Source: Eubacteriales Family XIII. Incertae Sedis bacterium (lineage in GTDB: Bacteria > Bacillota > Clostridia > Peptostreptococcales > Anaerovoracaceae). Taken from it: 34,918 nt of DNA. The translations under genes and the position numbers were made by a program. The notes under the pieces were generated by a model. It did not search any database. It saw only the letters and a program-made list of their open reading frames with translations, and was not told the origin of the DNA. This document shows, piece by piece, positions 5,649 through 34,827 of this stretch; position 1 is the stretch's first letter, and each line of letters opens with the position of its first letter. The stretch lies in the NCBI GenBank assembly GCA_031281765.1, contig JAITEX010000067.1, positions 1 through 34,918 of the forward strand. Direction: 5' to 3'.

Positions 5649-5679
5649 AGAACACAGGGGTAAGGCCCCCTTGTGTTCT
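5649..5679. terminator. Hairpin between convergent genes (likely bidirectional terminator)
   Basis: agaacacagggg-taagg-cccccttgtgttct: a ~12-bp stem with one bulge, between the ParE stop (5640) and the VOC stop (5707). No strong T-tract. Confidence 0.5.
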
Positions 5680-6075: not shown

Positions 6076-6222
6076 GGTCTGCCTCCGTTACTATAGGGAT
6101 GTGAACCCGCGGCCGAAAACGGCGCGGCGGGGTTTTGCTTGTTGTGGGCCTTTGTGGAGCCGGTTGTTGTGGCTTTGCGTATGGTGATGATAAAATTATA
6201 CGTATAAGAGAAAGGAATAGCA

Positions 6223-6293
6223 ATGCACAGGGGGACGGTTCCCTTGTGTCGGATTGTATACAATTTAGCACAGCGGAACCGTCCCCTTGTGTT
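6223..6293. repeat. Nested-palindromic repeat element, copy 1 (5' UTR of the aminopeptidase gene)
   Basis: atgcacagggggacggttcccttgtg-tcgga-TTGTATACAA-tttag-cacagcggaaccgtccccttgtgtt. The arms are inverted repeats of each other around a palindromic core. Confidence 0.85.
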
Positions 6294-6306
6294 AAAAAGG
6301 GGAAAT

Positions 6307-8346
6307 ATGGAGAATAATAGAGTGATAATGGGTCGGCTCGCGGCCCTGCGCGACGCGATGCGCGCGGCGGGGCTTGACGCCTACCTCGTCTTCGACGCGG
6401 ATACGGTCGGGAGCGAATCCCCCGCGGAGCGCTTTCTGACGCGCACCTGGCTGACGGGGTTTGACGGCTCGGCCGGCTGCGCCGTTATCACGGCAAACGA
6501 AGCGCGGCTGTGGACGGACGGGCGCTACTGGCTTCAGGCTGAGAAGCAGCTTGCCGGTACGGGCATAGAGCTGATGCGATCGGGCAAAGCCGGCGTACCG
6601 AAGCCGGAAGAATTTTTAGCGGCGGCTCTGCACGCCGGGGATGCGGTCGGCGTCTGCGGGGAGACTTTTCCCGCCGCGGAGTACGACGGGCTTGCGGCGG
6701 CGCTGCAGCCGCAGGGCATAGCGGTACGCGCAACCGAAGATTTGTTTGAGAAACTCTGGACAGTAAACCGGCCGGAGATGCCGACGGGAGAGATATTTTT
6801 GCTGGAGGACGCAGCGCGGGCAAAAGGCGCGGGCGCGGCGACGGGCGCAGAAGATATGCACAGGGGGACGGTTCCCTTGTGCGATTTTGTATACAATTCA
6901 ACACAGCGGAACCGTCCCCCTGTGTTGAACGCGGCGGCGCGAAATCTGGCAGCCGTGCGGGCTGAACTGAAGAAGCGCGGCGCCGACTATGCGCTTATAA
7001 CGGACCTCGCGTCGGTCGCGTGGCTCTTCGGGTTCCGCGGCTCTGACATCCTGTGTACGCCGGTTGCCTACGCGCGCGCCCTCGTATCGCAGAGCGACGC
7101 CATTCTCTTTATCGACAATGCGAAAGTCCCTGCGGATGTCTTGTCAAGCCTGGAGATTGACGGGGTTGCCGTCAGGGATTTCGGAGGCATGGAGCATAGT
7201 CTGCGCGGGCTTGCGCCCGGAACGCGCCTTACCTATGACCCTGATACCGTCAGCGCTGCTCTGCGAAATTCCTTAGCCGCCGACATCACGCGTATTGAAG
7301 CGCCCGACCCCGTCCTGCTCCTCAAGTCCCTGAAGACGGACGAAGAAATTGGGAACCTGCGACGCTGCCACGAACGCGACGGCAGGGTTATGGTGCGTTT
7401 TCTCATATGGCTGGAGGAGTCCGCGGGAAAGATAACCGAATACGACGCGGCCGGTAAGCTGACGGAATTGCGGGCCGAAGACCCGCTCAGCCTCGGGGAT
7501 TCGTTCGAGCCGATATGCGCATATGGCGCGAACGGGGCCATCGTTCATTATCATGCGGAGCCGGACAGCGCCGCGGTAATTGGTGAGAGGACATATGCAC
7601 AGGGGGACGGTTCCCTTGAGCAATTTTGTATACAATTTAACACAGTGGAACCGTCCCCCTGTGTCGGCGGTCGTCGTACGGAGCCGGACAGCGCCGCGGG
7701 ACTCGGCGAGGCGGGGTTCTTTGTGACGGACAGCGGCGGGCAGTATGTGGACGGGACGACGGATATTACGCGGACCGTGCTGTTGGGGGATAGTGGCGAC
7801 AGCGCCCGCCGCGACTATACCCTCGTACTGAAAGCCCATATCGCCCTCGCCTCGGTCGAGTTCCGCCACGGAGTGGCGGGAGCGCATCTCGATGCGCTCC
7901 CGCGGCGCGTCCTCTGGCGCGAAGGCGTAGACTACGCGCACGGTACGGGACACGGCGTCGGGTACGTACTCGGCGTACATGAGACGCCGCCAGGCTTCAC
8001 CTCTTCGGCGAATGCGGGCTCCGGCGCCCGGACGCCCATAGAACCGAATATGGTCTTTTCAAATGAACCCGGTCTCTACCGCGCCGGCGCCTATGGCATT
8101 CGCATCGAAAACCTCGTGACGCCCTACGTTTCGCGGGAAAACGAATTCGGCAGGTTCCTGAAGCTCGAGACCCTCTCGCTCTGCCCCATCGATCTCACGC
8201 CCGTCATTGCTGAAATGCTGACAATAGATGAAATAGAATGGTTGAACGCCTACCACCGCGAAGTCTACGCGCGCCTCGCCCCCGGCCTTACGGAAACGGA
8301 ACGCCGCTGGCTTGCTTCGCGCACCCGCGAAATATCGACCCCTTGA
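6307..8346 (+). CDS. Xaa-Pro aminopeptidase (M24B, aminopeptidase P family) with two in-frame repeat insertions
   Basis: Creatinase-like N-domains plus an M24 catalytic domain (DSGGQY..GTTDITRT, HGTGHGVG, SNEPGLY, IRIEN). ATG at 6307 (MENNRVIMGRL) with RBS AAAGGGGA. The ORF-track start at 6223 lies inside repeat copy 1. Confidence 0.9.
   Translation: MENNRVIMGRLAALRDAMRAAGLDAYLVFDADTVGSESPAERFLTRTWLTGFDGSAGCAVITANEARLWTDGRYWLQAEKQLAGTGIELMRSGKAGVPKPEEFLAAALHAGDAVGVCGETFPAAEYDGLAAALQPQGIAVRATEDLFEKLWTVNRPEMPTGEIFLLEDAARAKGAGAATGAEDMHRGTVPLCDFVYNSTQRNRPPVLNAAARNLAAVRAELKKRGADYALITDLASVAWLFGFRGSDILCTPVAYARALVSQSDAILFIDNAKVPADVLSSLEIDGVAVRDFGGMEHSLRGLAPGTRLTYDPDTVSAALRNSLAADITRIEAPDPVLLLKSLKTDEEIGNLRRCHERDGRVMVRFLIWLEESAGKITEYDAAGKLTELRAEDPLSLGDSFEPICAYGANGAIVHYHAEPDSAAVIGERTYAQGDGSLEQFCIQFNTVEPSPCVGGRRTEPDSAAGLGEAGFFVTDSGGQYVDGTTDITRTVLLGDSGDSARRDYTLVLKAHIALASVEFRHGVAGAHLDALPRRVLWREGVDYAHGTGHGVGYVLGVHETPPGFTSSANAGSGARTPIEPNMVFSNEPGLYRAGAYGIRIENLVTPYVSRENEFGRFLKLETLSLCPIDLTPVIAEMLTIDEIEWLNAYHREVYARLAPGLTETERRWLASRTREISTP
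6856..6926. repeat. Nested-palindromic repeat element, copy 2 (inside the aminopeptidase CDS, translated)
   Basis: atgcacagggggacggttcccttgtg-cgatt-TTGTATACAA-ttcaa-cacagcggaaccgtccccctgtgtt. Translated as MHRGTVPLCDFVYNSTQRNRPPVL. Confidence 0.85.
7556..7699. mobile_element. In-frame insertion module: repeat copy 3 (core 7595-7664) bounded by 21-bp direct repeats
   Basis: cggagccggacagcgccgcgg occurs at 7556-7576 and again at 7679-7699, offset 123 bp = 41 codons. The core atgcacagggggacggttcccttgag-caatt-TTGTATACAA-tttaa-cacagtggaaccgtccccctgtgt lies between them. Confidence 0.75.
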
Positions 8347-8371
8347 CAAATAAAATCCATGCGCGTATAAT
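8343..8371 (+). promoter_or_regulatory. Sigma-A consensus promoter of the NifX-GNAT/ABC/NifDK-like-1 operon
   Basis: TTGACA (8343-8348), 17-nt spacer, TATAAT (8366-8371). The -35 overlaps the aminopeptidase stop codon. Confidence 0.75.
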
Positions 8372-8391
8372 AATTTCATAATACATAGGTA

Positions 8392-8410
8392 ACATATATA
8401 TTTTATATGC
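8392..8410. promoter_or_regulatory. AT-palindrome operator, site A
   Basis: ACATATATA-T-TTTATATGC, 16/18 arm positions matching the palindrome ACATATATA-N-TATATATGT. Starts 21 nt downstream of the -10. Confidence 0.65.
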
Positions 8411-8424
8411 ATTACTGATCGGAC

Positions 8425-12452: not shown

Positions 12453-13949
12453 ATGGGTACAATCAACATCGATGCCGGCACGGTCCCTATCCGGGAAACG
12501 CGGTTAGGCTCCATAACGGGGTATTATGGCGACCTGGAGGATCTGTCGACCAAGTCCTCCTGCGGGAATTTGAAGAACAGGGAACGCTGCTTCAGCCAAT
12601 GCAGCCTCTGCCTGAATATGTGTTCCATCGGGGAGTTCACCTCGCTGCGCGATGTGGCGGTCATCAACCACGCGCCCGCCGGGTGCAATGCGGGCTCCGC
12701 AGCCACCAAGGTGTTTGCCAAACAGATAGCGGAACGCATCGGCAAGGAGTATAATTCCGTGCTGGTCGGAACTGACCTCAATGAGAGTGACACCGTATTC
12801 GGCGCCACAGAATCGCTCCCGGACATCGTCCGACAGGTATATGAGAATTATCGTCCGAGCGCTATAGTAATCGCCTCCTCCTGCGTAAGCGGCGTCATAG
12901 GCGAGGACATCGAAAGCGTCACGAGCGAATTGGACAGACAATACGACATACCCATCTTCCCGATACAGTGTGAAGGCTTCCGCTCAAAGATTTGGCAGTC
13001 GGGCGCGGACATCGCCGACCACGCCTTTGTCAAATACATTGTCAAACCGCCGCAGGAGAAACGCAATGTAATCAATTTCAAGAACTTCTTTGAAAGCGAG
13101 CGTCAGCAGATCACGGAGATTTTTGCGGAGCTGGGTGTGACGCCCCAATTCCTCTATCTCAATTCCACGATTGAGGAGGTCGAACATCTTTCGGAATCCC
13201 TTGCGACGGTCAGCATCTGCGGCACGCTTGGCACCTATCTCGGCAACGCCCTCGAAGAACTTTACGGCGTACCTTATATCCGCAGCCTCAACCCGAACGG
13301 CATCACGGGATTCGAAAGCTGGCTTCGCGAGATAGGCAAAAAGATAGGGAAAAGCGCGGAGGTTGAGAACTATCTCACGCGTGAGAAGGCCAAGTATATC
13401 GATAAAATCGAGGAAGTGAAGGACGAACTGAAGGGGCTGACCGCCGTCATCGGCATGGGCCCCGGCTATGCTTTCGATGTGGGACGCGTTTTGCAGGAAT
13501 TGGGGCTTGAAATCATCTGGACGACTGCCTGGCACCTTGACTATCGTTACGACAACGGGGAAATGCCGACGTCCTTGCGCTATATGACGGAACACTCCGC
13601 AAATAATTTCGGCGTAAGCGTAGCGGATCAGCAGAATTTCGAGATAATGCATACGCTGAAGACGTTGAAGCCGGATGTCTATTTCTCGCGCCATCCGGGA
13701 ACCACGGTATGGGCGGTCAAACAAGGCATTGCATCCGTATTCGTCGCGGATGAGTATACGATATTCGGGTATCGCGGCACCTTGAATTTTGCCAATATGA
13801 TACTTGACGCGGTGCGCAACCGCAGTTTTGAACAGAACCTTGCCGCGCGGACGAAGCTGCCGTACACGGACTGGTGGTACGAGCAGAACAATCAGGCGAT
13901 GCTTTTGAATGAGGGCGAAACCAGACTGCGCGAGGCGGCGGCCCACTAG
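12453..13949 (+). CDS. Nitrogenase component-1 alpha-like subunit (NifD/NifE-like), paralog 1
   Basis: NHAPAGC, ASSCVSGVIGEDIESV and IQCEGFRSK parallel NifD HGPVGC, SECPIGLIGDDIESV and VRCEGFRG. VSICGTLGTY parallels the cofactor-Cys segment LVHCYRSMNY. RBS AAGGAG. Confidence 0.85.
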   Translation: MGTINIDAGTVPIRETRLGSITGYYGDLEDLSTKSSCGNLKNRERCFSQCSLCLNMCSIGEFTSLRDVAVINHAPAGCNAGSAATKVFAKQIAERIGKEYNSVLVGTDLNESDTVFGATESLPDIVRQVYENYRPSAIVIASSCVSGVIGEDIESVTSELDRQYDIPIFPIQCEGFRSKIWQSGADIADHAFVKYIVKPPQEKRNVINFKNFFESERQQITEIFAELGVTPQFLYLNSTIEEVEHLSESLATVSICGTLGTYLGNALEELYGVPYIRSLNPNGITGFESWLREIGKKIGKSAEVENYLTREKAKYIDKIEEVKDELKGLTAVIGMGPGYAFDVGRVLQELGLEIIWTTAWHLDYRYDNGEMPTSLRYMTEHSANNFGVSVADQQNFEIMHTLKTLKPDVYFSRHPGTTVWAVKQGIASVFVADEYTIFGYRGTLNFANMILDAVRNRSFEQNLAARTKLPYTDWWYEQNNQAMLLNEGETRLREAAAH

Positions 13950-13969
13950 CGGGGGAGGAAGAGGCAAAT

Positions 13970-15277
13970 ATGGCACAGATATTGGATCAACCGAGATATA
14001 AATGCGCTCTTGCGGCAATGCAGACCGTACACGCCATTCCGCGGGCCATACCCATCCTGCACGCGGGTCCGGGGTGCGGCACGAAACTGAACGACAATAC
14101 CGGCATCTCAGGGTATTATTCACCGAATATATTTCCGAGCACGAATATCGGCGAAAAGGAGGTGGTCTTCGGTGGCGAGGGCAAACTGCGAACCACCATC
14201 GAAAACGCGCTGAAAATAATTGACGCCGACCTCTTTGTTGTGCTGACCGGCTGCACGGCCGAGATCATAGGGGATGACGCCGAAGAAATCGTACACGAAT
14301 TTGCGGACGCGGGGAAGCGCGTCATCTACGTGAACACCCCCGGGTTCAAGGGGTCGAATTATCAAGGGCACGATTGGGTACTGACCGCCCTTTTCGAGCA
14401 GTATCTACCGCGCGAACGCGTCCCCGTAAACGCGAAGCAGGTGAACATATTCCCGGGGCCTCCGGTGCAGGATCCCTTTTGGCACGGCAACCTGAAGGAG
14501 CTGGAATCCCTGTTCCGCGAAATCGGCCTTGAGCCGAATATCATCTTCGGCTATGGCAACGGCGTTTCGGCCGTCGACCGCATACCGGCAGGCGCTTTCA
14601 ATATCCTCGTCTCGCCGTGGGTCGGCCTGGACAGCGTCAAGGTCCTCGAAAAGAAATACGGGACGCCGTACCTGCATTATCCCGTGCTGCCGATCGGCGC
14701 GACGGAGACGAGCAAGTTCCTCCGCGCCGTAGGGAAATTCACGAAGGTTGACGAGCTTCATGTCGAGCGCGTCATCGCCGAACATGAGAAGGAATATTAT
14801 TACTTTATCGAACGCTATTCGGATACCTTTCTCGAGCTGAGGATACTCTCCAAACGCTTCGTCGTCATATCCGACGCGCAGTACGCGATTGCCGCGACAA
14901 AGTTCCTCGTCAACGACCTCGGCTGGAACCCGGGCGGTACGCAGTTCGTTACGGACAACACGCCGGAGGAATACCGCGAAAGCGTCCGCTCCGAATTTGA
15001 AAAGCTCAATTACGGCATCAAGGCGTCGATGGAATTTTCGACAAACGGGTTTGAGATACAAAAGAAGATCAGGGAATCCGGATTTACCGCGCCGCCGATG
15101 ATCTTCGGCAGCAGTTGGGATAAGAGCTTCGCAAAGGAGATATATGCCCCCTTCCTGAACATCTCCTATCCTACGTATGACCGGCTCATCATCAACAGCG
15201 GCGTGGTCGGCTACGCCGGCGGCCTTAAGTTCCTGGAAGACATTTATACCACGGCGGTGCAGTCGCTTATTCTGTAA
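13970..15277 (+). CDS. Nitrogenase component-1 beta-like subunit (NifK/NifN-like), paralog 1
   Basis: YKCALAAM, HAGPGCG and LTGCTAEIIGDD parallel the three NifK P-cluster Cys motifs (ACQPLGA, HGSQGC, TTCMAEVIGDD). RBS GGGGGAGGAAGAGG. Confidence 0.85.
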   Translation: MAQILDQPRYKCALAAMQTVHAIPRAIPILHAGPGCGTKLNDNTGISGYYSPNIFPSTNIGEKEVVFGGEGKLRTTIENALKIIDADLFVVLTGCTAEIIGDDAEEIVHEFADAGKRVIYVNTPGFKGSNYQGHDWVLTALFEQYLPRERVPVNAKQVNIFPGPPVQDPFWHGNLKELESLFREIGLEPNIIFGYGNGVSAVDRIPAGAFNILVSPWVGLDSVKVLEKKYGTPYLHYPVLPIGATETSKFLRAVGKFTKVDELHVERVIAEHEKEYYYFIERYSDTFLELRILSKRFVVISDAQYAIAATKFLVNDLGWNPGGTQFVTDNTPEEYRESVRSEFEKLNYGIKASMEFSTNGFEIQKKIRESGFTAPPMIFGSSWDKSFAKEIYAPFLNISYPTYDRLIINSGVVGYAGGLKFLEDIYTTAVQSLIL

Positions 15278-15313
15278 AGTTTATCGGGCGTACGATAAGC
15301 GGCGCCGATCGGT

Positions 15314-15343
15314 TTGCGTGACGATGTCCGTATATAGTATAAT
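15314..15343 (+). promoter_or_regulatory. Candidate promoter of the TetR gene
   Basis: TTGCGT, 18-nt spacer, TATAAT (15338-15343), flanked by CGTATA(T)AG direct repeats. It lacks the AT-palindrome operator seen at the other cluster promoters. Confidence 0.4.
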
Positions 15344-15394
15344 GCGTATAAGAACGCGGTATAAATAACAGGCATGCCCGCGCGGGAGTACGCT

Positions 15395-15964
15395 ATGAGC
15401 AAAAAAGAGGAAATTATCGGGACGACCATCGATCTGTTCAAACGTGAAGGCTGTGAAAACGCGACGATACAGCGGATTTGCGAGGTCAACAAAATCACGA
15501 AAGGTACGTTCTATTATCATTTCAAGTCCAAGGGCGATCTTATCTATGCCTTCTTTGAATTGCAGGGCAACAGTATCCTGAGTATCTTCCCTCACATTGT
15601 AGCGGAGACCGACGACAGGAAGAAGATATGGATCGCCTACGAGTTTTGGCTCGATATGATGCTGCAGCTCGGGGAAAAATTGCTCCACGGCCTCTTTGTT
15701 TTCGAATATGAGAACGGTTTCGATTTCTTCTCGCCCTACCCGCGCATCCCCCGCGGCAACCTGCCCGACCCCTATAATATGATTATTGAACTTATCAAAA
15801 GCGCGCAGGCGTCCGGCGCTATTCGCAACAACGCGCCGCATGAACGCCTTATCATCACCCTGAACGCCATGATGACCACCATCCTGATGGATTGGTCCGC
15901 AGGCGGCCGCGACTACGATCCGAAAGAGGAAATACGCGCGGGGTTCGACGCTATTCTCAATTAA
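15395..15964 (+). CDS. TetR/AcrR-family transcriptional regulator
   Basis: N-terminal HTH: IIGTTIDLFKREGCENATIQRICEVNKITKGTFYYHFKSKGDL. ATG at 15395 with GGGAG RBS preferred over 15374. Confidence 0.88.
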   Translation: MSKKEEIIGTTIDLFKREGCENATIQRICEVNKITKGTFYYHFKSKGDLIYAFFELQGNSILSIFPHIVAETDDRKKIWIAYEFWLDMMLQLGEKLLHGLFVFEYENGFDFFSPYPRIPRGNLPDPYNMIIELIKSAQASGAIRNNAPHERLIITLNAMMTTILMDWSAGGRDYDPKEEIRAGFDAILN

Positions 15965-16000
15965 AGCGCATAGGCCGCTCACCTCTCTAATATCTACCGT

Positions 16001-16030
16001 TTGACAAGGATAGTTGGCATGTGGTATAAT
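16001..16030 (+). promoter_or_regulatory. Sigma-A promoter of the NifH-like gene (extended -10)
   Basis: TTGACA (16001-16006), 18-nt spacer, TGgTATAAT (16022-16030). Confidence 0.75.
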
Positions 16031-16031
16031 T

Positions 16032-16058
16032 ACATATATCATATATATGATATATATG
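16032..16058. promoter_or_regulatory. AT-palindrome operator, site B (two overlapping copies)
   Basis: ACATATATC-A-TATATATGA (16032-16050) overlaps CATATATAT-G-ATATATATG (16040-16058). Directly abuts the -10. Confidence 0.65.
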
Positions 16059-16085
16059 CAATATTCCATAAAGAAAGGGACAACT

Positions 16086-16976
16086 ATGGCGAAAAACGGC
16101 AAAGCGATCAAGCAGATTGCGATTTACGGCAAAGGGGGTATCGGCAAATCGACCACCACCTCGAACCTGAGCGCGGCATTGGCCGATCTCGGCTATAAGG
16201 TCATGCAATTCGGGTGTGACCCGAAAGCGGACTCCACGAATACCTTACGGGACGGTTCATATATTCCTACCGTGTTGGAACTATTGCGGGACCGGGGCAG
16301 CGTAAACGCCCACGACGCGATTTTTGTGGGATACAACGGCATATACTGCGTGGAGGCCGGCGGCCCGGCGCCCGGCGTGGGGTGCGCGGGGCGCGGTATC
16401 ATCACCGCGGTGCAATTGCTGAAAGAACAGGATATTTTCGAAGAACTCGATTTGGACTATGTGATCTACGACGTCCTCGGCGACGTTGTCTGCGGCGGCT
16501 TCGCGGTGCCCATCCGGGAGGGTATTGCGCAGCACGTCTTTACGGTTTCGTCCTCGGATTTTATGGCCATATACGCCGCCAACAATCTGTTCAAGGGCAT
16601 CCAGAAATATTCGAACTCGGGAGGCGCCCTCCTCGGCGGCATTATCGCGAACTCCGTTTCACCCGAATCCAATTATCAGCGATCCATTATCGACGATTTC
16701 GCCGCACGGACAAGCACGCAGATCATGCAATATATCCCCCGTTCCGTTACGGTGACCCAGAGCGAACTTTCGGGAAAGACGACCATAGAGGCCGCGCCGG
16801 ATTCCGCTCAGGCCAAGGTGTACCGCGAACTCGCGCGCCGCATCGACGAGCATGTCGACTCCAAGACGCCAACGCCTTTGGAACCTTCGCAATTGCGCGA
16901 CTGGGCCGCAGAATGGTCCGACCAGATACTCGCCATCGAAACCGGCGAGGTCCGCACGGAAGCGGCCAACATCTAA
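16086..16976 (+). CDS. NifH-like ATPase / Fe-protein (nitrogenase iron protein family)
   Basis: [18 protein letters not shown] (Walker A), GCDPKADST (switch I), and [4Fe-4S] Cys in [12 protein letters not shown] and [17 protein letters not shown] at 16086 with RBS AAAGGGA. Confidence 0.92.
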
Positions 16977-17021
16977 GGAAACGCTGATTACCGGCATTTT
17001 TGCATGGCGCTGTGCAAGCGT

Positions 17022-18389
17022 CTACAGGCTCAATTTTCTGCGGAAGGTCCGGGCGATAAGGCAGAGGCTGATAAGGCAGGTTGCCGTCTCCGCAACCGGA
17101 AAGCAGTACCAGACATAGCGCGGTTCAAACACCCGCCACAACAGTAAGGCGGCCGGGATGATGAATACGAGCTGTCTGAGCGAGGATATGATAAACGACA
17201 CAAACCCCACTCCGATAGATTGATAAAAGTTGGCTGTCATAATGGAAACCCCGGACATCGCGAAGGATATGCTGATGACGCGGAGCGCAAACGCCCCTAT
17301 CTCGTTGAGGTTCGCGGACGCGTGGAAAAGGCTCATGATCTCCTGCGGGAACATCTGCGTAAGCGCCGTCCCCACGAGCATAGCCGTTACGGAAGATACC
17401 ATCGCGAGAATAAATGTCTTGCGGACGCGCGGGATATTACGCGCCCCGTAATTGAAGCTGATAATAGGCAGGGCTCCCTGCCCTATTCCAAAGACGGGCG
17501 TAATGATTATCGTCTGCAGGCGATAATATATGCCGAGAACCGCCACGGCTGTCACCGAATACGCCATGAGAATAGCGTTCATCAAGAGTGACGATAGCGA
17601 CGAGATCCCATACATGAAGATGGAAGGCGCCCCGACTCTATAGATGTCCTTAATAATGGGGAAGTTGAAGCGCAGCGTACGCAGGGCAAAGCTCACATCA
17701 CTTTTCGCGCGCGCGAGCAGGATGAGGCCGAGCGCGGCCGCCGAGCACTGCCCTATCACCGTAGCCGTAGCCGAGCCGGCGATCCCGAGCGCGGGGAAGC
17801 CGAACTTCCCGAAAATAAGGATGGGATTGAGAACGATGTTGATGACCGTCCCGACGATGTTAAATATAAGCGGCTGATAGACGAGCCCCACCGATTGCAA
17901 AATCCTCTCGATATTGAACTGGAAGAAGGCGCCGAGGGAGCCGACCGTCGTGATAGTGCAAAACACCGACGCAAGGGACAGCAGCTCGGGGTCGTCGGTG
18001 AGCAGATGCAGAAACGGCATGGTGAGGAGGATGCCGAAGGCCGCGAAAACCAACCAGCTTGCTATGACAAGCAGGTACGCCTGATTGGCGACCGCCGAAA
18101 CCTTTTCCCTGTTCTTCTCCCCGTAGGAGCGGGCCATCAGGGAACCGACGCCAACGCCGGTCCCCGCGGCGATCGCCATGAGAAACATCGGGATGGGGAA
18201 AACGAGCGTCGTCGCAGCCAACGCTTTCTCGGAGATGCGCGCCACGAAGATGCTGTCCACGATATGGTAGACGGATTGGGCCGTCATGGTAACGATGGGC
18301 GGTATCGACATCGCCGCGAGCAAGCGCCCGACGGGTCTGGTTCCTAACTTCTCACTTCCCGGCTCAACGCCGCCCATCTTACCGGCCAT
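17022..18389 (-). CDS. MATE-family efflux transporter
   Basis: 455 aa, ~12 predicted TM segments, with a typical MATE N-terminus (RLLAAMSIPPIVTMTAQSVYHIVDSIFVARI). The start codon lies 2 nt after the NifK-like-2 stop. Confidence 0.88.
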   Translation of the reverse strand: MAGKMGGVEPGSEKLGTRPVGRLLAAMSIPPIVTMTAQSVYHIVDSIFVARISEKALAATTLVFPIPMFLMAIAAGTGVGVGSLMARSYGEKNREKVSAVANQAYLLVIASWLVFAAFGILLTMPFLHLLTDDPELLSLASVFCTITTVGSLGAFFQFNIERILQSVGLVYQPLIFNIVGTVINIVLNPILIFGKFGFPALGIAGSATATVIGQCSAAALGLILLARAKSDVSFALRTLRFNFPIIKDIYRVGAPSIFMYGISSLSSLLMNAILMAYSVTAVAVLGIYYRLQTIIITPVFGIGQGALPIISFNYGARNIPRVRKTFILAMVSSVTAMLVGTALTQMFPQEIMSLFHASANLNEIGAFALRVISISFAMSGVSIMTANFYQSIGVGFVSFIISSLRQLVFIIPAALLLWRVFEPRYVWYCFPVAETATCLISLCLIARTFRRKLSL

Positions 18390-18391
18390 GA

Positions 18392-19678
18392 TTACAGATT
18401 GTTGAACAGGTCCTCAACGAGGGTTATCGCGCCGCGGTATCCGCTATAGGTGCGGTTGAGAATCAGCTGGTCGGTGATGGGATACGCCGCAACGAATATC
18501 TGCGCGTCACGATTGAAGGCGATTTCCCGTTCCAATGAACTGCCGACAAACAGCGAGACGTCGTTATACTCGTCGAGGGCCCGGCCCACATCGTAATTAT
18601 CGGTGGCAAAGACGACATCCGGCCCTTTGACATATTCGAGATCCTGTATCCGGTCCCGTATAGCCGCCTTATCCGCTTCGCGTGACACCGGTTCGGTCAC
18701 CACGGTGACCACCGGGGTGAACCCGAGGTCGTTCGCGAGCGCGTGCGTCATGCCTATCGCCACATTGGCGTCCCCGATGACGGCGAATTTCTTCCACGAC
18801 AGAGCGCCGATGGCCGTTTCGTAATAATTATAGACGTAAGACTCCTCCTCGTAGATGACATCCTCGACGAGTTTGCCGTCTATAGCAAGCGCGTCCGCAA
18901 CCTGCCGGACGAGGCGCGTCGTATCGGTCGCGCCGACCGGCAGCCCCGGGAAACGGAGGCTCGGCACGCCGAACCTCTTTTCAAATTTCCTTGCCTCGCC
19001 TTGCAGGAGCCACGGATTGACTATGACGTTCAGCGCCGCCGCGCCGGCATTTTTTATATGTTCAATGCCCTGGCCGTGCGAGAAGAAGGTATTCACCTCC
19101 AGACCGAGCTTGGAAAAGATGCGCACTAATTCCTCAAACGTGCCCGCCCAATAGGGGTCATGATAGGGGAAGATGCCGAGCAGGTTGATGAGATTGGCCT
19201 GCCTGGGCCGCCCCGGCTCCACGAGCTGGCTCAGGAAGGTGGATATGGTCGTTTCGTATCCGAGGTTGCTGTCCCCCGCAAACCCCGGCGTGGGGATGTT
19301 ATAGACCGGGAAGCCTTCCGCGCGGAACCCCTTCGCCACCGTCTCCGTATCATCGCCGATAATGCCCGATGTGCAGCCGTTGAGGATGAAGTAGGCGTCC
19401 GCGTCGATAATGTCGATACTGCCGCGAATCGTATCGGTGAGTTTTTCAATGCCGCCAAACACCACCTCGCGTTCGAGCATAAGCGAGCAGGGAAGGGACA
19501 CGCTCGAGAGGAAATGCGGCGACTTGAGTCCCGCCTGCCCCGCTTCCCCCGCGCTGGTCTGGAGTCCGCATCCGGGTCCCGAATGAAAGATCGGGCAGAA
19601 TTTGTTGACGGCTGACAGGGTGCTGTTGATGCCGCCGAGTACGCAGCTGCCCCGGGGGTTCTCGGTAACGATGGACAT
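18392..19678 (-). CDS. Nitrogenase component-1 beta-like subunit (NifK/NifN-like), paralog 2
   Basis: GSCVLGG, HSGPGCG and LNGCTSGIIGDD give all three NifK-type P-cluster Cys motifs. The start lies 1 nt after the NifD-like-2 stop. Confidence 0.85.
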   Translation of the reverse strand: MSIVTENPRGSCVLGGINSTLSAVNKFCPIFHSGPGCGLQTSAGEAGQAGLKSPHFLSSVSLPCSLMLEREVVFGGIEKLTDTIRGSIDIIDADAYFILNGCTSGIIGDDTETVAKGFRAEGFPVYNIPTPGFAGDSNLGYETTISTFLSQLVEPGRPRQANLINLLGIFPYHDPYWAGTFEELVRIFSKLGLEVNTFFSHGQGIEHIKNAGAAALNVIVNPWLLQGEARKFEKRFGVPSLRFPGLPVGATDTTRLVRQVADALAIDGKLVEDVIYEEESYVYNYYETAIGALSWKKFAVIGDANVAIGMTHALANDLGFTPVVTVVTEPVSREADKAAIRDRIQDLEYVKGPDVVFATDNYDVGRALDEYNDVSLFVGSSLEREIAFNRDAQIFVAAYPITDQLILNRTYSGYRGAITLVEDLFNNL

Positions 19679-19679
19679 A

Positions 19680-21131
19680 TTAGATTACCTCCTTTATAAA
19701 CTTGAACGGGTCTTCGTCATACCAGCTCTCGCGATACGGCAGGCGCGCATACTTCGACAGCTTCTTGTTGAATCCCGGGTTTTCGATTTGGGCCGCGATC
19801 TTATTCCCCAGCCACACGATGCCGTCATAGCCCATAGTCGGCCGTTTCGGATCCAGAATATGCGTGGTCGGAATGCCGAACCTCGACGACCAGGAGGGTA
19901 CGCCGATAAAGACGTCCGGTTTCAGTTTGTTCACTATATTTACCTGTTCAAAGGGCAGCATATTGGCGACGTCGATGAGGTAATCCCCGTGAATATCGTT
20001 CAGAAACGCTATGTCGTCCTGAGCGTCAAGGTCGTAGACGGGCGTTTCAATGCCGAGCAGTTTCATGCCGAAATCATCGATAAGGGTGGCCGCCGCGAAC
20101 GAACGGCCCGTGCCGCCGCAGATAAACACCGACTTGCCCTGTAGCTTCAGCTTGATCTTGTCCAATTCCGGCTGAATGCGCGCGTGTTCGGTGGCGATGA
20201 TCTCTTCGACTTCATCCCCCTTGCCGGTGATCTCGGCAATGGCGCGATACCACTTATCCGTATTGCGTATTCCCACCGGCATCACCGTATGGGCGTAAGG
20301 AATGCCGAAGTCATGTTCGATGTCCTTCATAAACTCATCGGCGAACACCTTGCAGATGGACGTGGACGCTTCGGCGTTCGGTATATTCAGAACTTTGTCA
20401 TAGTCGCTGAAGAAGGGCAAAAAGTTGCTCTTCAATCCTATCCTCCGCAGCAATTTTTCTATTTCGAGCTGATCCGCGAAGCTCACCGTCATCGGCGCGA
20501 AGAGATTGATAAGGCCCTTCTCCTTCTTCGGGACCGCGCCTTTTAACACGAATTTCGATATGGCGATAAAAGCGGCGTCGTACCCGGAAGCGCAGATTTT
20601 CGACCGAAAACCGTCGCAGTGCACGGGGACGATGAGCGCCTCCGTATCCGGCTGCGCCTCGCGGACGATGGCGTCAACATCATCGCCTATTATACCGGAA
20701 GCGCAGGAGGTGAACACGAAAATCAGCTTTGGCTTGTACCGTTCGGACGCAAGCCGGATGGATTCGCGCAGCTTCCCCTCGCCTCCCATAATGACGTCGC
20801 TCTGATCGAGGTTTGTTATGAGGATCTTCGGTGACGTGATTTTCTCGGCGCCGCGATGGATCTGCGCGACACGGTACATATCCGCCCCCATGGTGATACA
20901 CCCGACACAGCCCTGCGGCGCGTGCGCGATGAGCACGGCGTCATTGACCGAAAGTAACGCGGATATGCTGTTCAGCTCCTGGCATTGATAGCTCTGGCTG
21001 AACGTGCGATCAGCGTTCTTAATACATTTCTTCTTGAAATCCTGCTCGATTTGCAGACTGCTGCCCGCAAGATCGAGATACGTATCGGTGTATTCGCGTT
21101 GTTCCCGAATACCGGAATAGGTTCTTGGCAT
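19680..21131 (-). CDS. Nitrogenase component-1 alpha-like subunit (NifD/NifE-like), paralog 2
   Basis: HAPQGC, FTSCASGIIGDDVDAIV, VHCDGFRSK, STSICKVFADEF (cofactor-Cys position) and GIPTTHILD (candidate His). The ATG at 21131 (MPRTYSG) follows a GGGAGGAG RBS, so the ORF-track start at 21149 is rejected. Confidence 0.85.
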   Translation of the reverse strand: MPRTYSGIREQREYTDTYLDLAGSSLQIEQDFKKKCIKNADRTFSQSYQCQELNSISALLSVNDAVLIAHAPQGCVGCITMGADMYRVAQIHRGAEKITSPKILITNLDQSDVIMGGEGKLRESIRLASERYKPKLIFVFTSCASGIIGDDVDAIVREAQPDTEALIVPVHCDGFRSKICASGYDAAFIAISKFVLKGAVPKKEKGLINLFAPMTVSFADQLEIEKLLRRIGLKSNFLPFFSDYDKVLNIPNAEASTSICKVFADEFMKDIEHDFGIPYAHTVMPVGIRNTDKWYRAIAEITGKGDEVEEIIATEHARIQPELDKIKLKLQGKSVFICGGTGRSFAAATLIDDFGMKLLGIETPVYDLDAQDDIAFLNDIHGDYLIDVANMLPFEQVNIVNKLKPDVFIGVPSWSSRFGIPTTHILDPKRPTMGYDGIVWLGNKIAAQIENPGFNKKLSKYARLPYRESWYDEDPFKFIKEVI

Positions 21132-21175
21132 CTTTCTCCTCCCATACATCCGTCTCCGTCAATATAGCCTAATTA

Positions 21176-21277: not shown

Positions 21278-21306
21278 TTGACAAGAGTAAAGGAGAGGCA
21301 TATAAT
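21278..21306 (+). promoter_or_regulatory. Sigma-A consensus promoter of the NifB-like/NifX-like operon
   Basis: TTGACA (21278-21283), 17-nt spacer, TATAAT (21301-21306). Divergent from the promoter at 21199-21227. Confidence 0.75.
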
Positions 21307-21318
21307 AATACTTATTAA

Positions 21319-21337
21319 ACATATATATTATATATGT
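21319..21337. promoter_or_regulatory. AT-palindrome operator, site C (perfect 9-1-9 palindrome)
   Basis: ACATATATA-T-TATATATGT. Starts 13 nt after the -10. Confidence 0.7.
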
Positions 21338-21398
21338 ATTTGCTGACCTGCCAGAAATTTGGCTCTCAGCTTGTAGATACCGCGCCGAAACGGATGCG

Positions 21399-22327: not shown

Positions 22328-22678
22328 ATGGCATATAGAGCTGCCTTTGCAACGAGCGACGGATTGACCGTTTACAAACACTTCGGACAAGCGAACGAAT
22401 ATCTCGTCGCCGACATCCTGGAAGACCATTATGAAATCGTAGCTCGCAGAAACGTAGTCCCTCCCTGCAACGCCCGCGGGCACTCGGAAGCGGCGTTCGA
22501 CGCGGTACTTGACGCCTTATCCGACTGTGAAGCCATTTTCGTCGGCAAGGTCGGAGTGGGAGCTGCGGAATACATCGCAAGCCGGGGTATAAACGTATTT
22601 GAAACCCCGGGTGTGATCGATGAGATTTTTTTAAAACAAAAATCGCAGGCGCCTCTTGATAAAAAACGGGATATATGA
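22328..22678 (+). CDS. NifX/NifB-C-terminal-like FeMo-cofactor-binding family protein
   Basis: MAYRAAFATSDGLTVYKHFGQANEYLV...IFVGKVGVGAAEYIASRGINVFE. ATG at 22328 with RBS GGAAGGTGA preferred over 22298. Confidence 0.8.
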   Translation: MAYRAAFATSDGLTVYKHFGQANEYLVADILEDHYEIVARRNVVPPCNARGHSEAAFDAVLDALSDCEAIFVGKVGVGAAEYIASRGINVFETPGVIDEIFLKQKSQAPLDKKRDI

Positions 22679-22684
22679 TATTAT
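22656..22684 (+). promoter_or_regulatory. Promoter of the yezD-like gene (extended -10)
   Basis: TTGATA (22656-22661), 17-nt spacer, TGaTATTAT (22676-22684). Embedded in the 3' end of the NifX-like gene. Confidence 0.6.
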
Positions 22685-22703
22685 ACATATATGTTATATA
22701 TGT
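22685..22703. promoter_or_regulatory. AT-palindrome operator, site D
   Basis: ACATATATG-T-TATATATGT (17/18 arm positions). Directly abuts the -10. Confidence 0.65.
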
Positions 22704-22725
22704 AATAGGGTGATAGGTAGAGCCG

Positions 22726-34033: not shown

Positions 34034-34093
34034 CTTGACACGTGTTGATAGATGTTGACACGAGTTGATAGATGTTGACACGGGTTGATAGCA
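34034..34093. repeat. 3 x 20-bp tandem repeat (six TTGAYA hexamers in 10-bp phase)
   Basis: cTTGACAcgtgTTGATAgat / gTTGACAcgagTTGATAgat / gTTGACAcgggTTGATAgca. Within their first 19 positions units 2 and 3 differ only at the central nucleotide (T/A/G across the three units). Unit 1 also differs at its first base, and unit 3 ends ...gca instead of ...gat. Confidence 0.85.
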
Positions 34094-34098
34094 GGAAA

Positions 34099-34827
34099 CT
34101 ATCGATTAAGGCTCTCAACAAAAGCTCTTTCTTCTTCTCCAATTTCGCTGTCGTCCATCTTTCTTGTATTTTTTGAAAGCTCGTCAAGAGTAAGGTCTTT
34201 ATCGTTCAGGTTTATTTCGTAAGCTCCGAATTTATCCATATAAATCAATTGAATTGACCTGAAATTATATCGGTCGCCTACTGCGTCTATCAATTGATGT
34301 GCTGTTTCGCTCGCCATATTTTTGCTGTCATCCTCTGAAATCGTCTTATCGCGATTTTGAATGCCCAGTAAATATATTTTTTGCTCAACACTGAGTTTTT
34401 CAAAATCCGGGTTGTAATTATCATCAGCGATTACAAACGTATGAATATACAATTCCTCGGGAAATTCCAAATAGTCATTGGCAAAAGACTCGCAAGCCGC
34501 GGGATAATCCTCATTAAATTTATCCTGAAAATAATTTGTGACATTTTCGTCCGTAATCCGGTTGGCATAAAACTTTAATGTCATCGTTTGAATACCAATC
34601 TTCACTTCCGAGAAATATCCCCTCTCGGGAAAGAAATAATAGGTTCTTTTGATCTCGCTGTCCGCGGAATATACCTCGTGAATGTATTTCTGGATTTCAT
34701 TCTTTGCTATAGCTTTGGAAACAGGGTTTCCGGTAAGAGCGTTTATGACAAATAAAAACGCCGCAATAAAAACAGCGCATACAATCAACCCAACTATACT
34801 CAGCGTCTTTTTAACTTTTCTAACCAT
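34099..34827 (-). CDS. Hypothetical membrane-anchored protein (single N-terminal TM helix), low GC
   Basis: MVRKVKKTLSIVGLIVCAVFIAAFLFVINAL then a hydrophilic 200-aa domain. No family recognised. The ATG overlaps the upstream stop (TAATG). Confidence 0.6.
   Translation of the reverse strand: MVRKVKKTLSIVGLIVCAVFIAAFLFVINALTGNPVSKAIAKNEIQKYIHEVYSADSEIKRTYYFFPERGYFSEVKIGIQTMTLKFYANRITDENVTNYFQDKFNEDYPAACESFANDYLEFPEELYIHTFVIADDNYNPDFEKLSVEQKIYLLGIQNRDKTISEDDSKNMASETAHQLIDAVGDRYNFRSIQLIYMDKFGAYEINLNDKDLTLDELSKNTRKMDDSEIGEEERAFVESLNR

Follow-up and report, generated by a model that had tools for sequence, protein, structure and literature searches.

A hairpin repeat with a conserved tip, present three times in and before an Xaa-Pro aminopeptidase gene, is probably a REPIN-like element of a RAYT-associated family

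How did one short palindromic sequence come to stand three times in, and directly ahead of, a single peptidase gene, and what kind of element is it? The question is raised by contig JAITEX010000067.1 of assembly GCA_031281765.1 (Eubacteriales Family XIII. Incertae Sedis bacterium), positions 1 to 34,918 of which form the window, i.e., the whole stretch of DNA that was analysed. A repeat search found one family in this 34.9-kb window, comprising three copies of 77 nucleotides (nt) in identical orientation, located within and upstream of a gene for an Xaa-Pro aminopeptidase (Table 1). We consider it likely that the element is a REPIN-like, non-autonomous hairpin repeat (REPIN, a doublet of repetitive extragenic palindromic sequences, REPs, that folds into a hairpin) associated with transposases of the RAYT/TIRYT type (RAYT, REP-associated tyrosine transposase), mobilised in trans and persisting where it is harmless.

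Each copy is a doublet of two inverted hairpin units of about 23 nt around a short spacer, TTGTATACAA. The window arms are of the CACAGGGGGACGGTTCC type, and each of them forms a hairpin of its own with the stem CACAG(G)/C(T)TGTG and the tip GGGGACGGTTCC; the hairpin feet read ATGCACAGG and CCTGTGTT. When whole copies were folded, each gave a long hairpin of -42 to -48 kcal/mol (z -6.6 to -8.7). Copy 1 is 84% and copy 3 is 92% identical to copy 2. The 23-nt arm CACAGGGGGACGGTTCCCTTGTG was matched six times at up to three mismatches, namely by both arms of the three copies (0 expected from 100 shuffles), and the spacer occurred three times (0 expected in shuffled sequence); neither was found outside the three copies in the 34.9 kb. 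The sequence-only reading, made before this analysis, had proposed a nested palindrome of about 70 bp in three copies, with arms that are inverted repeats of each other and are themselves hairpins, and with few stop codons in many frames. All three points held: the copies are clear, the arm stem covaries across family members (see below), and four of the six reading frames are fully open in every copy. A near-match to the core at 16249 was rejected as a chance match, there being no palindrome at that site. The degenerate solo arm listed in Table 1 lies between convergent parE-like and glyoxalase genes and has a terminator-like score on both strands.

The same core occurs well beyond this window. 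One genome per species was scanned with the pattern GGACGGTTCC-N22-42-GGAACCGTCC, and at least 120 loci were obtained from Bacillota, Actinomycetota, Bacteroidota, Cyanobacteriota, Chloroflexota and Pseudomonadota, so that the pattern search that had been suggested for further copies did return same-core elements elsewhere. In 366 arms, the two bases ahead of the searched 10-mer are conserved as well (G at -1 in 98%, at -2 in 79%), which argues that the core matches are not chance palindromes, and sequence further out is lineage-specific; across the six phyla, the core of the fetched loci hardly varies over 11-12 nt. Complementarity of at least 5 bp between the flanks of the core was present in 50% of the arms versus 8% of controls. 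In an alignment of 18 arms, 89.5% of the cells of the stem around the core are paired and seven of the nine pairs show compensatory changes, a level reached by none of 500 shuffles. Because the stem covaries and the flanks are complementary, the unit is a hairpin in which the tip, GGGGACGGTTC(C/T), is conserved and the stem drifts, and the "nested palindrome" of the window is two such units in inverted order, which is the REPIN architecture.

In other genomes the units occur as singlets, doublets and nested arrays, and the genes adjoining dispersed copies are ordinary, unrelated housekeeping genes. BLAST of the unit against plasmid and phage collections gave no match and the core pair was present in only four viral contigs; the element is therefore not phage- or plasmid-borne. 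A search of Rfam 15 with the window and 18 family loci gave no match at the gathering score, only sub-threshold hairpins resembling miRNA precursors. Peptides from all six frames of the element had no match in a database of 5.8 billion proteins, for the size of which the query is probably too short. The form of the repeat differs among lineages. In Halomicronema sp. CCY15110 (L003, L017, L052, L088, L103), copies have only a core pair of about 14 nt in common (AGGGGACGGTTCC ... GGAACCGTCCCCT) and the roughly 30 nt between the cores vary by copy; Clostridia keep the whole unit. Nested or iterated core arrays were observed at L015 199-380, L102 323-550, L096 612-790 and L043 4179-4380, with several units pointing one way and then several pointing the other, a spacing of 13-37 nt, and short intervening repeats that are lineage-specific (e.g., GGTTAC in Bifidobacteriaceae).

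The link to a transposase came from the open reading frames (ORFs) of the fetched loci. A phmmer search of all of them with E. coli RayT gave one match (L029:3626-4426, E 4.9e-8), a 267-amino-acid (aa) protein from a Thermoanaerobacter metagenome-assembled genome (MAG) with Pfam Y1_Tnp at aa 11-123 (4.6e-19) and a C-terminal helix-turn-helix (HTH) at aa 231-264. Its motifs SNHVHLMI, HLFQDRF and RYIHQNPVKAG fit subclass 2.1 (Table 1 of PMC6006769), and its gene is flanked by cagacaagGGGGACGGTTCCttttgtctg upstream and an inverted unit downstream. Homologues of this protein number 5,551 in the protein database, and the source annotation of many reads REP-associated tyrosine transposase or RayT. 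Another seven independent homologue loci were taken (L131 and L133-L138, from Syntrophomonadaceae, Desulfitobacteriaceae, Petroclostridium, Sporomusa, a Clostridiales MAG, a Eubacteriales MAG and Herbivorax), and in all seven a core hairpin lies 60-100 nt upstream of the transposase start; an inverted copy follows within about 15 nt of the stop codon in six (the copy in L136 is degenerate). Core hairpins thus flank the Y1 HUH gene in eight of eight genomes, with an upstream unit in every one and a clear inverted downstream unit in seven. At least three of the RAYT-bearing genomes carry dispersed doublets or singlets nearby with the same or similar stems. The arms of the window align with the RAYT-flanking repeats, and the unit of the Eubacteriales locus L137, ATACAGGGGGACGGTTCTTGTGTAT, is almost the window arm. 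At these loci (L029 3567-3625; L131 4908-5000; L133-L138) the upstream core hairpin runs into a TTGAC (-35-like), and a TGATAA-type -10 follows about 17 nt later, ahead of the RAYT-type genes; the repeat and the promoter of the transposase gene thus overlap, so that the gene may be autoregulated via the HTH domain.

This enzyme class has been described under three names. Di Nocera et al. 2013 (PMC3733652) reported "TIRtron" TIRYT transposases with inverted repeats at fixed distances and the common motif GGGGWSAS, the repeats of which are present in some genomes singly, as dimers and in groups. Quentin et al. 2018 (PMC6006769) treated TIRYT as TnpA-Y1 subclass 2.1 (about 240-260 aa, with NHVH, FQ/W[EQ], Y..NP and a C-terminal HTH) and detected no REP-like structures for it, and in Bertels et al. 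2017 (PMC5581495) the class is RAYT Group 1, the most widely distributed group, present in Clostridia, with only moderately repeated 16-mers in its flanks. The loci described here agree with these accounts in the Y1 HUH transposase of about 260 aa with NHVH, FQ and Y..NP motifs and a C-terminal HTH, in the position of the gene between inverted repeats that start with GGGG and stand at fixed distances, and in the dispersal of the repeats as singles, dimers and groups; they differ from TIRYT as published in that the core is at the tip of a covarying hairpin. The exact core 11-mer did not occur in the relevant papers of the literature searched. The repeat also resembles the REPIN-RAYT systems of Pseudomonas and E. 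coli (Bertels and Rainey 2011, PMC3116915), in which a non-autonomous inverted doublet folds into a long hairpin and a single-copy RAYT gene is flanked by units that also occur as singlets, doublets and clusters. Unlike these, it belongs with another RAYT subclass, and it has no GT[AG]G (GTAG/GTGG) at the hairpin foot, the conserved motif being at the tip. Since this foot tetranucleotide is absent, a canonical GTAG REP (subclasses 2.2, 2.4 and 2.5; Groups 2 and 3) was ruled out.

The gene that received the copies encodes a protein with the domains Creatinase_N, Creatinase_N_2, Peptidase_M24 and Peptidase_M24_C. Its length of 679 aa compares with a median of 595 aa in 42 homologues, relative to which it has only two large private insertions: 35 aa at residues 174-208 (nt 6826-6930), containing copy 2, and 41 aa at residues 425-465 (nt 7579-7701), containing copy 3. 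The alignment to human XPNPEP1 (3ctz) has its breaks precisely at query residues 164-213 and 423-470. Within ORF 6307-8346, the reading frame of copy 2 is not that of copy 3, and the encoded peptides are ...MHRGTVPLCDFVYNSTQRNRPPVL... and ...YAQGDGSLEQFCIQFNTVEPSPCV..., respectively. The first insertion site is at the boundary of the first and second N-terminal domains, and the second directly ahead of the strand bearing D475. This residue, together with D486, H549, E587 and E601, is invariant across 43 homologues; judging by the alignment to the 3ctz structure, we take the five to be the metal ligands.

An AlphaFold2 model of the aminopeptidase had a mean pLDDT (predicted local distance difference test) of 87 and a predicted template modelling (pTM) score of 0.86. 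Values below 50 were confined to residues 169-206 and 430-467, i.e., to the two insertions, at which pLDDT was 30-40, and superposition of the model on 3ctz gave a template modelling (TM) score of 0.87. From the high model confidence outside the inserts and this agreement with 3ctz, the fold is predicted to be intact, with both inserts as floppy or disordered loops. The sequence-only reading had thus been right that two copies are read in different frames of the coding sequence without stops, that the protein is some 80 aa too long because of two insertions of about 40 codons, and that these would fall in loops. The alignment that it had proposed, as a check for two clean insertions, showed most homologues to be without both and the closest one to be without copy 3; its label of an "essential-type" peptidase was not established. 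An intein, an intron and translational bypass were set aside because in-frame, stop-free inserts need no removal.

Copy 1 lies in the 5' leader. Two relatives have the ATG 6 nt after the motif ATGATAAAATTATAC(T), so that the gene looks leaderless, whereas in the window a block of about 105 nt (6202-6306) with copy 1 separates the -10-like motif from the ancestral ATG (6307); the insertion of copy 1 has therefore created the leader. This leader holds a hairpin of -48 kcal/mol and a Shine-Dalgarno-like AAAGGGG. The extended -10 that had been put forward as a candidate upstream of copy 1 gains credit from the conservation of its motif in relatives. Another ATG, at 6223, stands at the left edge of copy 1 with GAAAGGA before it and is in frame with the gene (ORF 6223-8346), so that an N-terminal extension of 28 aa is possible. 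At the other end of the gene, a perfect TTGACA-17-TATAAT promoter consensus (8343-8371) was noted directly after the peptidase stop codon.

The order Phd/ParE, glyoxalase, peptidase is kept in relatives, and orthologues at 55-73% identity are without the window copies. In the closest homologue (P0002, 63-73% identity) copy 3 is absent, and the loop that holds copy 2 in the window is occupied by another element of like kind, GGGACAG-TGGGGACGGCACAAAG-CTGTCCC ... GGGACAG-TTTGTACCGTCCCCA-CTGTCCC, with junctions unlike those of copy 2 and with an interior and stems of another subfamily; an additional solo arm is found at a third site. P0003, P0004 and P0005 lack both insertions of the window and have other insertions in the same loops. 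Tandem duplications are also seen at this gene. In two relatives, tandem duplications 160-189 nt long lie in the region ahead of the peptidase gene (L122 1866-2144, L123 1826-2162); that of L123 takes in ~130 nt from the start of the coding sequence together with the promoter-like motif. In orthologue P0004 (901 aa; L123 2359-3160), a 210-nt (70-aa) sequence unrelated to the hairpin element stands four times in tandem and in frame, in a different loop of the first domain.

In-frame insertion is not confined to the peptidase. A metagenome scan for the arm pattern of the window gave only two matches, both from one termite-gut sample and both in frame, one inside an amidase (within the Pfam domain) and the other inside a galactokinase (between its two domains). 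Most members of the broader family in other genomes are intergenic. Elsewhere, 27 elements are spanned by long ORFs, of which ten were checked by Pfam and one is credible, a family doublet at L049 2398-2462 that is in frame within an ABC-F-type protein of a termite-gut Clostridiales MAG, in the linker joining its two ABC domains, and is likely to be another translated insertion. Of the other nine checked, eight matched nothing in Pfam and resemble spurious frames, and in one the element is upstream of the domains of its gene. Permissive sites in unrelated genes have therefore been occupied in the peptidase (twice), the amidase, the galactokinase and the ABC-F linker.

Such behaviour recalls the Rickettsia palindromic elements (RPEs) of Ogata et al. 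2000, which, as relayed in PMC10969869, are found in frame in unrelated housekeeping genes, are read in more than one frame, and occupy sites where the fold tolerates them. RPEs (~100-150 bp in that account) belong to another size class and another host phylum, a separation made on these grounds rather than by sequence comparison; unlike for the RPEs as relayed there, a candidate transposase is identified here and most family members elsewhere are intergenic. The comparison with RPEs made in the sequence-only reading is hence apt as an analogy (in-frame insertion, loops), and not in the sense of an orphan "RPE equivalent", because the element belongs to a cross-phylum family flanking RAYT/TIRYT genes. 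To its remark that it knew of no described equivalent in Clostridia-like genomes it must be added that in-frame REP insertions outside Rickettsia are already published (PMC3733652, PMC6006769). Intragenic REP dimers of the GTAG/CGTC type encode 20-30 aa with the frame kept, sometimes twice per ORF (PMC3733652); they are often near the N-terminus, and further REPs lie inside subclass 2.4 tnpA genes (PMC3733652, PMC6006769). These intragenic and tnpA repeats are of another superfamily, with another tag, than the window element, and the hosts of the published intragenic REPs are mostly Proteobacteria, Verrucomicrobia and Cyanobacteria/Bacteroidetes. For the TIRYT / subclass 2.1 / Group 1 class, we found no published in-frame gene insertions.

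If the element is a REPIN-like repeat of this class, a RAYT/TIRYT enzyme would copy it in trans via folded single-stranded DNA, and selection would remove gene-breaking insertions and leave survivors only where they are harmless. Two insertions into surface loops of the aminopeptidase would have kept the frame and brought no stops, giving disordered loops of 35 and 41 aa, and a third would have landed between the promoter and the start codon, giving a structured leader. Mobilisation by a RAYT in this genome would have to be assumed, and the inserts are presumably translated and neutral. Several points weigh against this explanation. Neither a RAYT nor any other transposase was found in the 35-kb window. 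The RAYT association covers Bacillota loci, and the core occurs in further phyla. The core, GGGGACGG, fits the TIRYT motif at seven of its eight positions, with G for A at position 7, and translation of the inserts is judged from the reading frame. To our knowledge, there is no biochemistry for the TIRYT / subclass 2.1 transposase class. The three copies are confined to 1.44 kb, with none in the other 33.5 kb (P ~0.005 for three uniform points), and the duplication of 32-37 nt at copy 3 is not expected from IS200/IS605-type chemistry.

That the three copies are gathered in one gene suggests local copying, by which copy 3, and perhaps copy 1, would derive from copy 2 through template switching provoked by the hairpin or through segmental duplication. 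Such an event would leave a long duplication of the re-entry site, and the direct repeat that brackets copy 3 (score 44 versus a shuffle maximum of 25) abuts it exactly; the segment so duplicated is single in orthologue P0002. The likeness of copies 2 and 3 includes the 10 nt left of the palindrome, all copies share one orientation, and among 128 other family elements no such long duplication was found apart from repeat arrays, 127 of them having no significant flanking repeat. However, copies 1 and 2 have no significant flanking repeat, related elements are dispersed beside unrelated genes in many genomes, and local copying would cover the spread within the gene only, not the origin of the family or its link with RAYTs. 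As an account of the whole, we regard local copying as a minor possibility, one that nevertheless deserves to be taken seriously; for copy 3 alone, a replicative template switch from copy 2 is a sensible alternative.

The copies might also be selected cis-regulatory structures (a leader hairpin, an mRNA stabiliser, a processing site or a protein-binding operator) rather than selfish DNA. Their folds are very stable, the three copies are clustered in one transcription unit, one arm of copy 2 is terminator-like by score, and copy 1 lies between promoter and start codon of a gene that looks leaderless in relatives. A regulatory role is nevertheless unlikely, because orthologues at 55-73% identity do without the copies, the family stands beside unrelated genes in six phyla, no Rfam family matches, and the differences between the copies of the window are not compensatory.

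A conventional miniature inverted-repeat transposable element (MITE), derived from a DDE-type insertion sequence and bounded by terminal inverted repeats, would agree with the size of about 70-85 nt, the inverted-repeat architecture and the dispersed copies. We consider it very improbable: whole units of ~85 nt are conserved within a genome and aligned copies show no short target duplication, the conserved motif is subterminal, at the hairpin tip, instead of at the termini, clustering of all ORFs and a Pfam scan of 150 ORFs adjoining family members revealed no enriched transposase of the DDE or any other type, and the only transposase flanked by the repeats is the Y1 HUH enzyme in the eight genomes. 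Equally hard to credit is the idea that the inserted peptides are adaptive modules with a function in the enzyme; the insertions are kept in frame and free of stops and a related element occupies the copy-2 loop of the closest orthologue, but the two frames give unrelated peptides, which are modelled as disordered (pLDDT 30-40) and are absent from most homologues. An assembly artefact hardly needs consideration, for although the assembly is probably metagenomic and chimeric joins can arise at palindromes, the copies are not identical (8-16% of positions differ), the ORF runs on unbroken and aligns collinearly with homologues to either side of every copy, and the same type of in-frame insertion occurs on independent contigs from other samples.

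Table 1. Repeat copies and associated features at the aminopeptidase locus, in window positions.
Feature	Position	Strand	Remarks
Repeat copy 1	6216-6292	+	77 nt; palindrome arms 6226-6291
Repeat copy 2	6849-6925	+	77 nt; palindrome arms 6859-6924
Repeat copy 3	7588-7664	+	77 nt; palindrome arms 7598-7663
Degenerate solo arm AACACAGGGGTAAGGCCCCCTTGTGTT	5651-5679	.	Arm-like stem, mutated tip
Extended -10-like motif TGATGATAAAATTATAC	6185-6201	+	Conserved upstream of orthologous genes
Xaa-Pro aminopeptidase (M24B), three-domain, 679 aa	6307-8346	+	Domain matches and homologues
Direct repeat, upstream copy (AEPDSAAVIGE)	7551-7587	+	32-37 nt of host coding sequence; abuts left end of copy 3
Direct repeat, downstream copy (TEPDSAAGLGE)	7674-7710	+	Second copy of the 32-37 nt of host coding sequence

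Some other features of the window were recorded. A nitrogenase-like cluster (12453-21149) consists of two paralogous pairs of the nitrogenase component 1 type, one NifH-like gene, a MatE transporter and a radical-SAM gene. An AT-rich, partly palindromic motif resembling ATATATATTTTATATG occurs at 8373-8413, 16029-16069, 21300-21340 and 22666-22706, at intergenic sites that adjoin nitrogenase-like (NifH/NifDK-like) and radical-SAM genes. Three tandem copies of the 20-nt unit TTGACACGTGTTGATAGATG (34035-34094) are intergenic and lie upstream of the minus-strand gene 34099-34827.

What is new in these results is not in-frame insertion itself, it is the conserved tip motif and its consistent link to genes of the subclass 2.1 type. 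A bolder proposal is that the hairpin tipped by GGGGACGGTTC(C/T) is the cognate mobile repeat of Group 1 / subclass 2.1, the largest RAYT class, with recognition of the almost invariant tip across at least six phyla, entry into coding regions frequent enough in some gut Clostridia to reshape loops and leaders, and a route that can yield target duplications of more than 30 nt; we offer it tentatively and are more inclined to doubt than to accept it as a whole. If it is true, a class previously described as lacking REPs would gain a cognate mobile repeat. Already on the main reading, one gene displays three outcomes of one selfish repeat, two presumably translated loops in different frames and one new structured leader. 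The tip motif of 11-12 nt provides a concrete DNA substrate for the biochemistry of the poorly understood TIRYT/Group 1 RAYTs, and a simple tag by which such repeats may be annotated, and mis-annotated protein "insertions" avoided, in Bacillota and other phyla.

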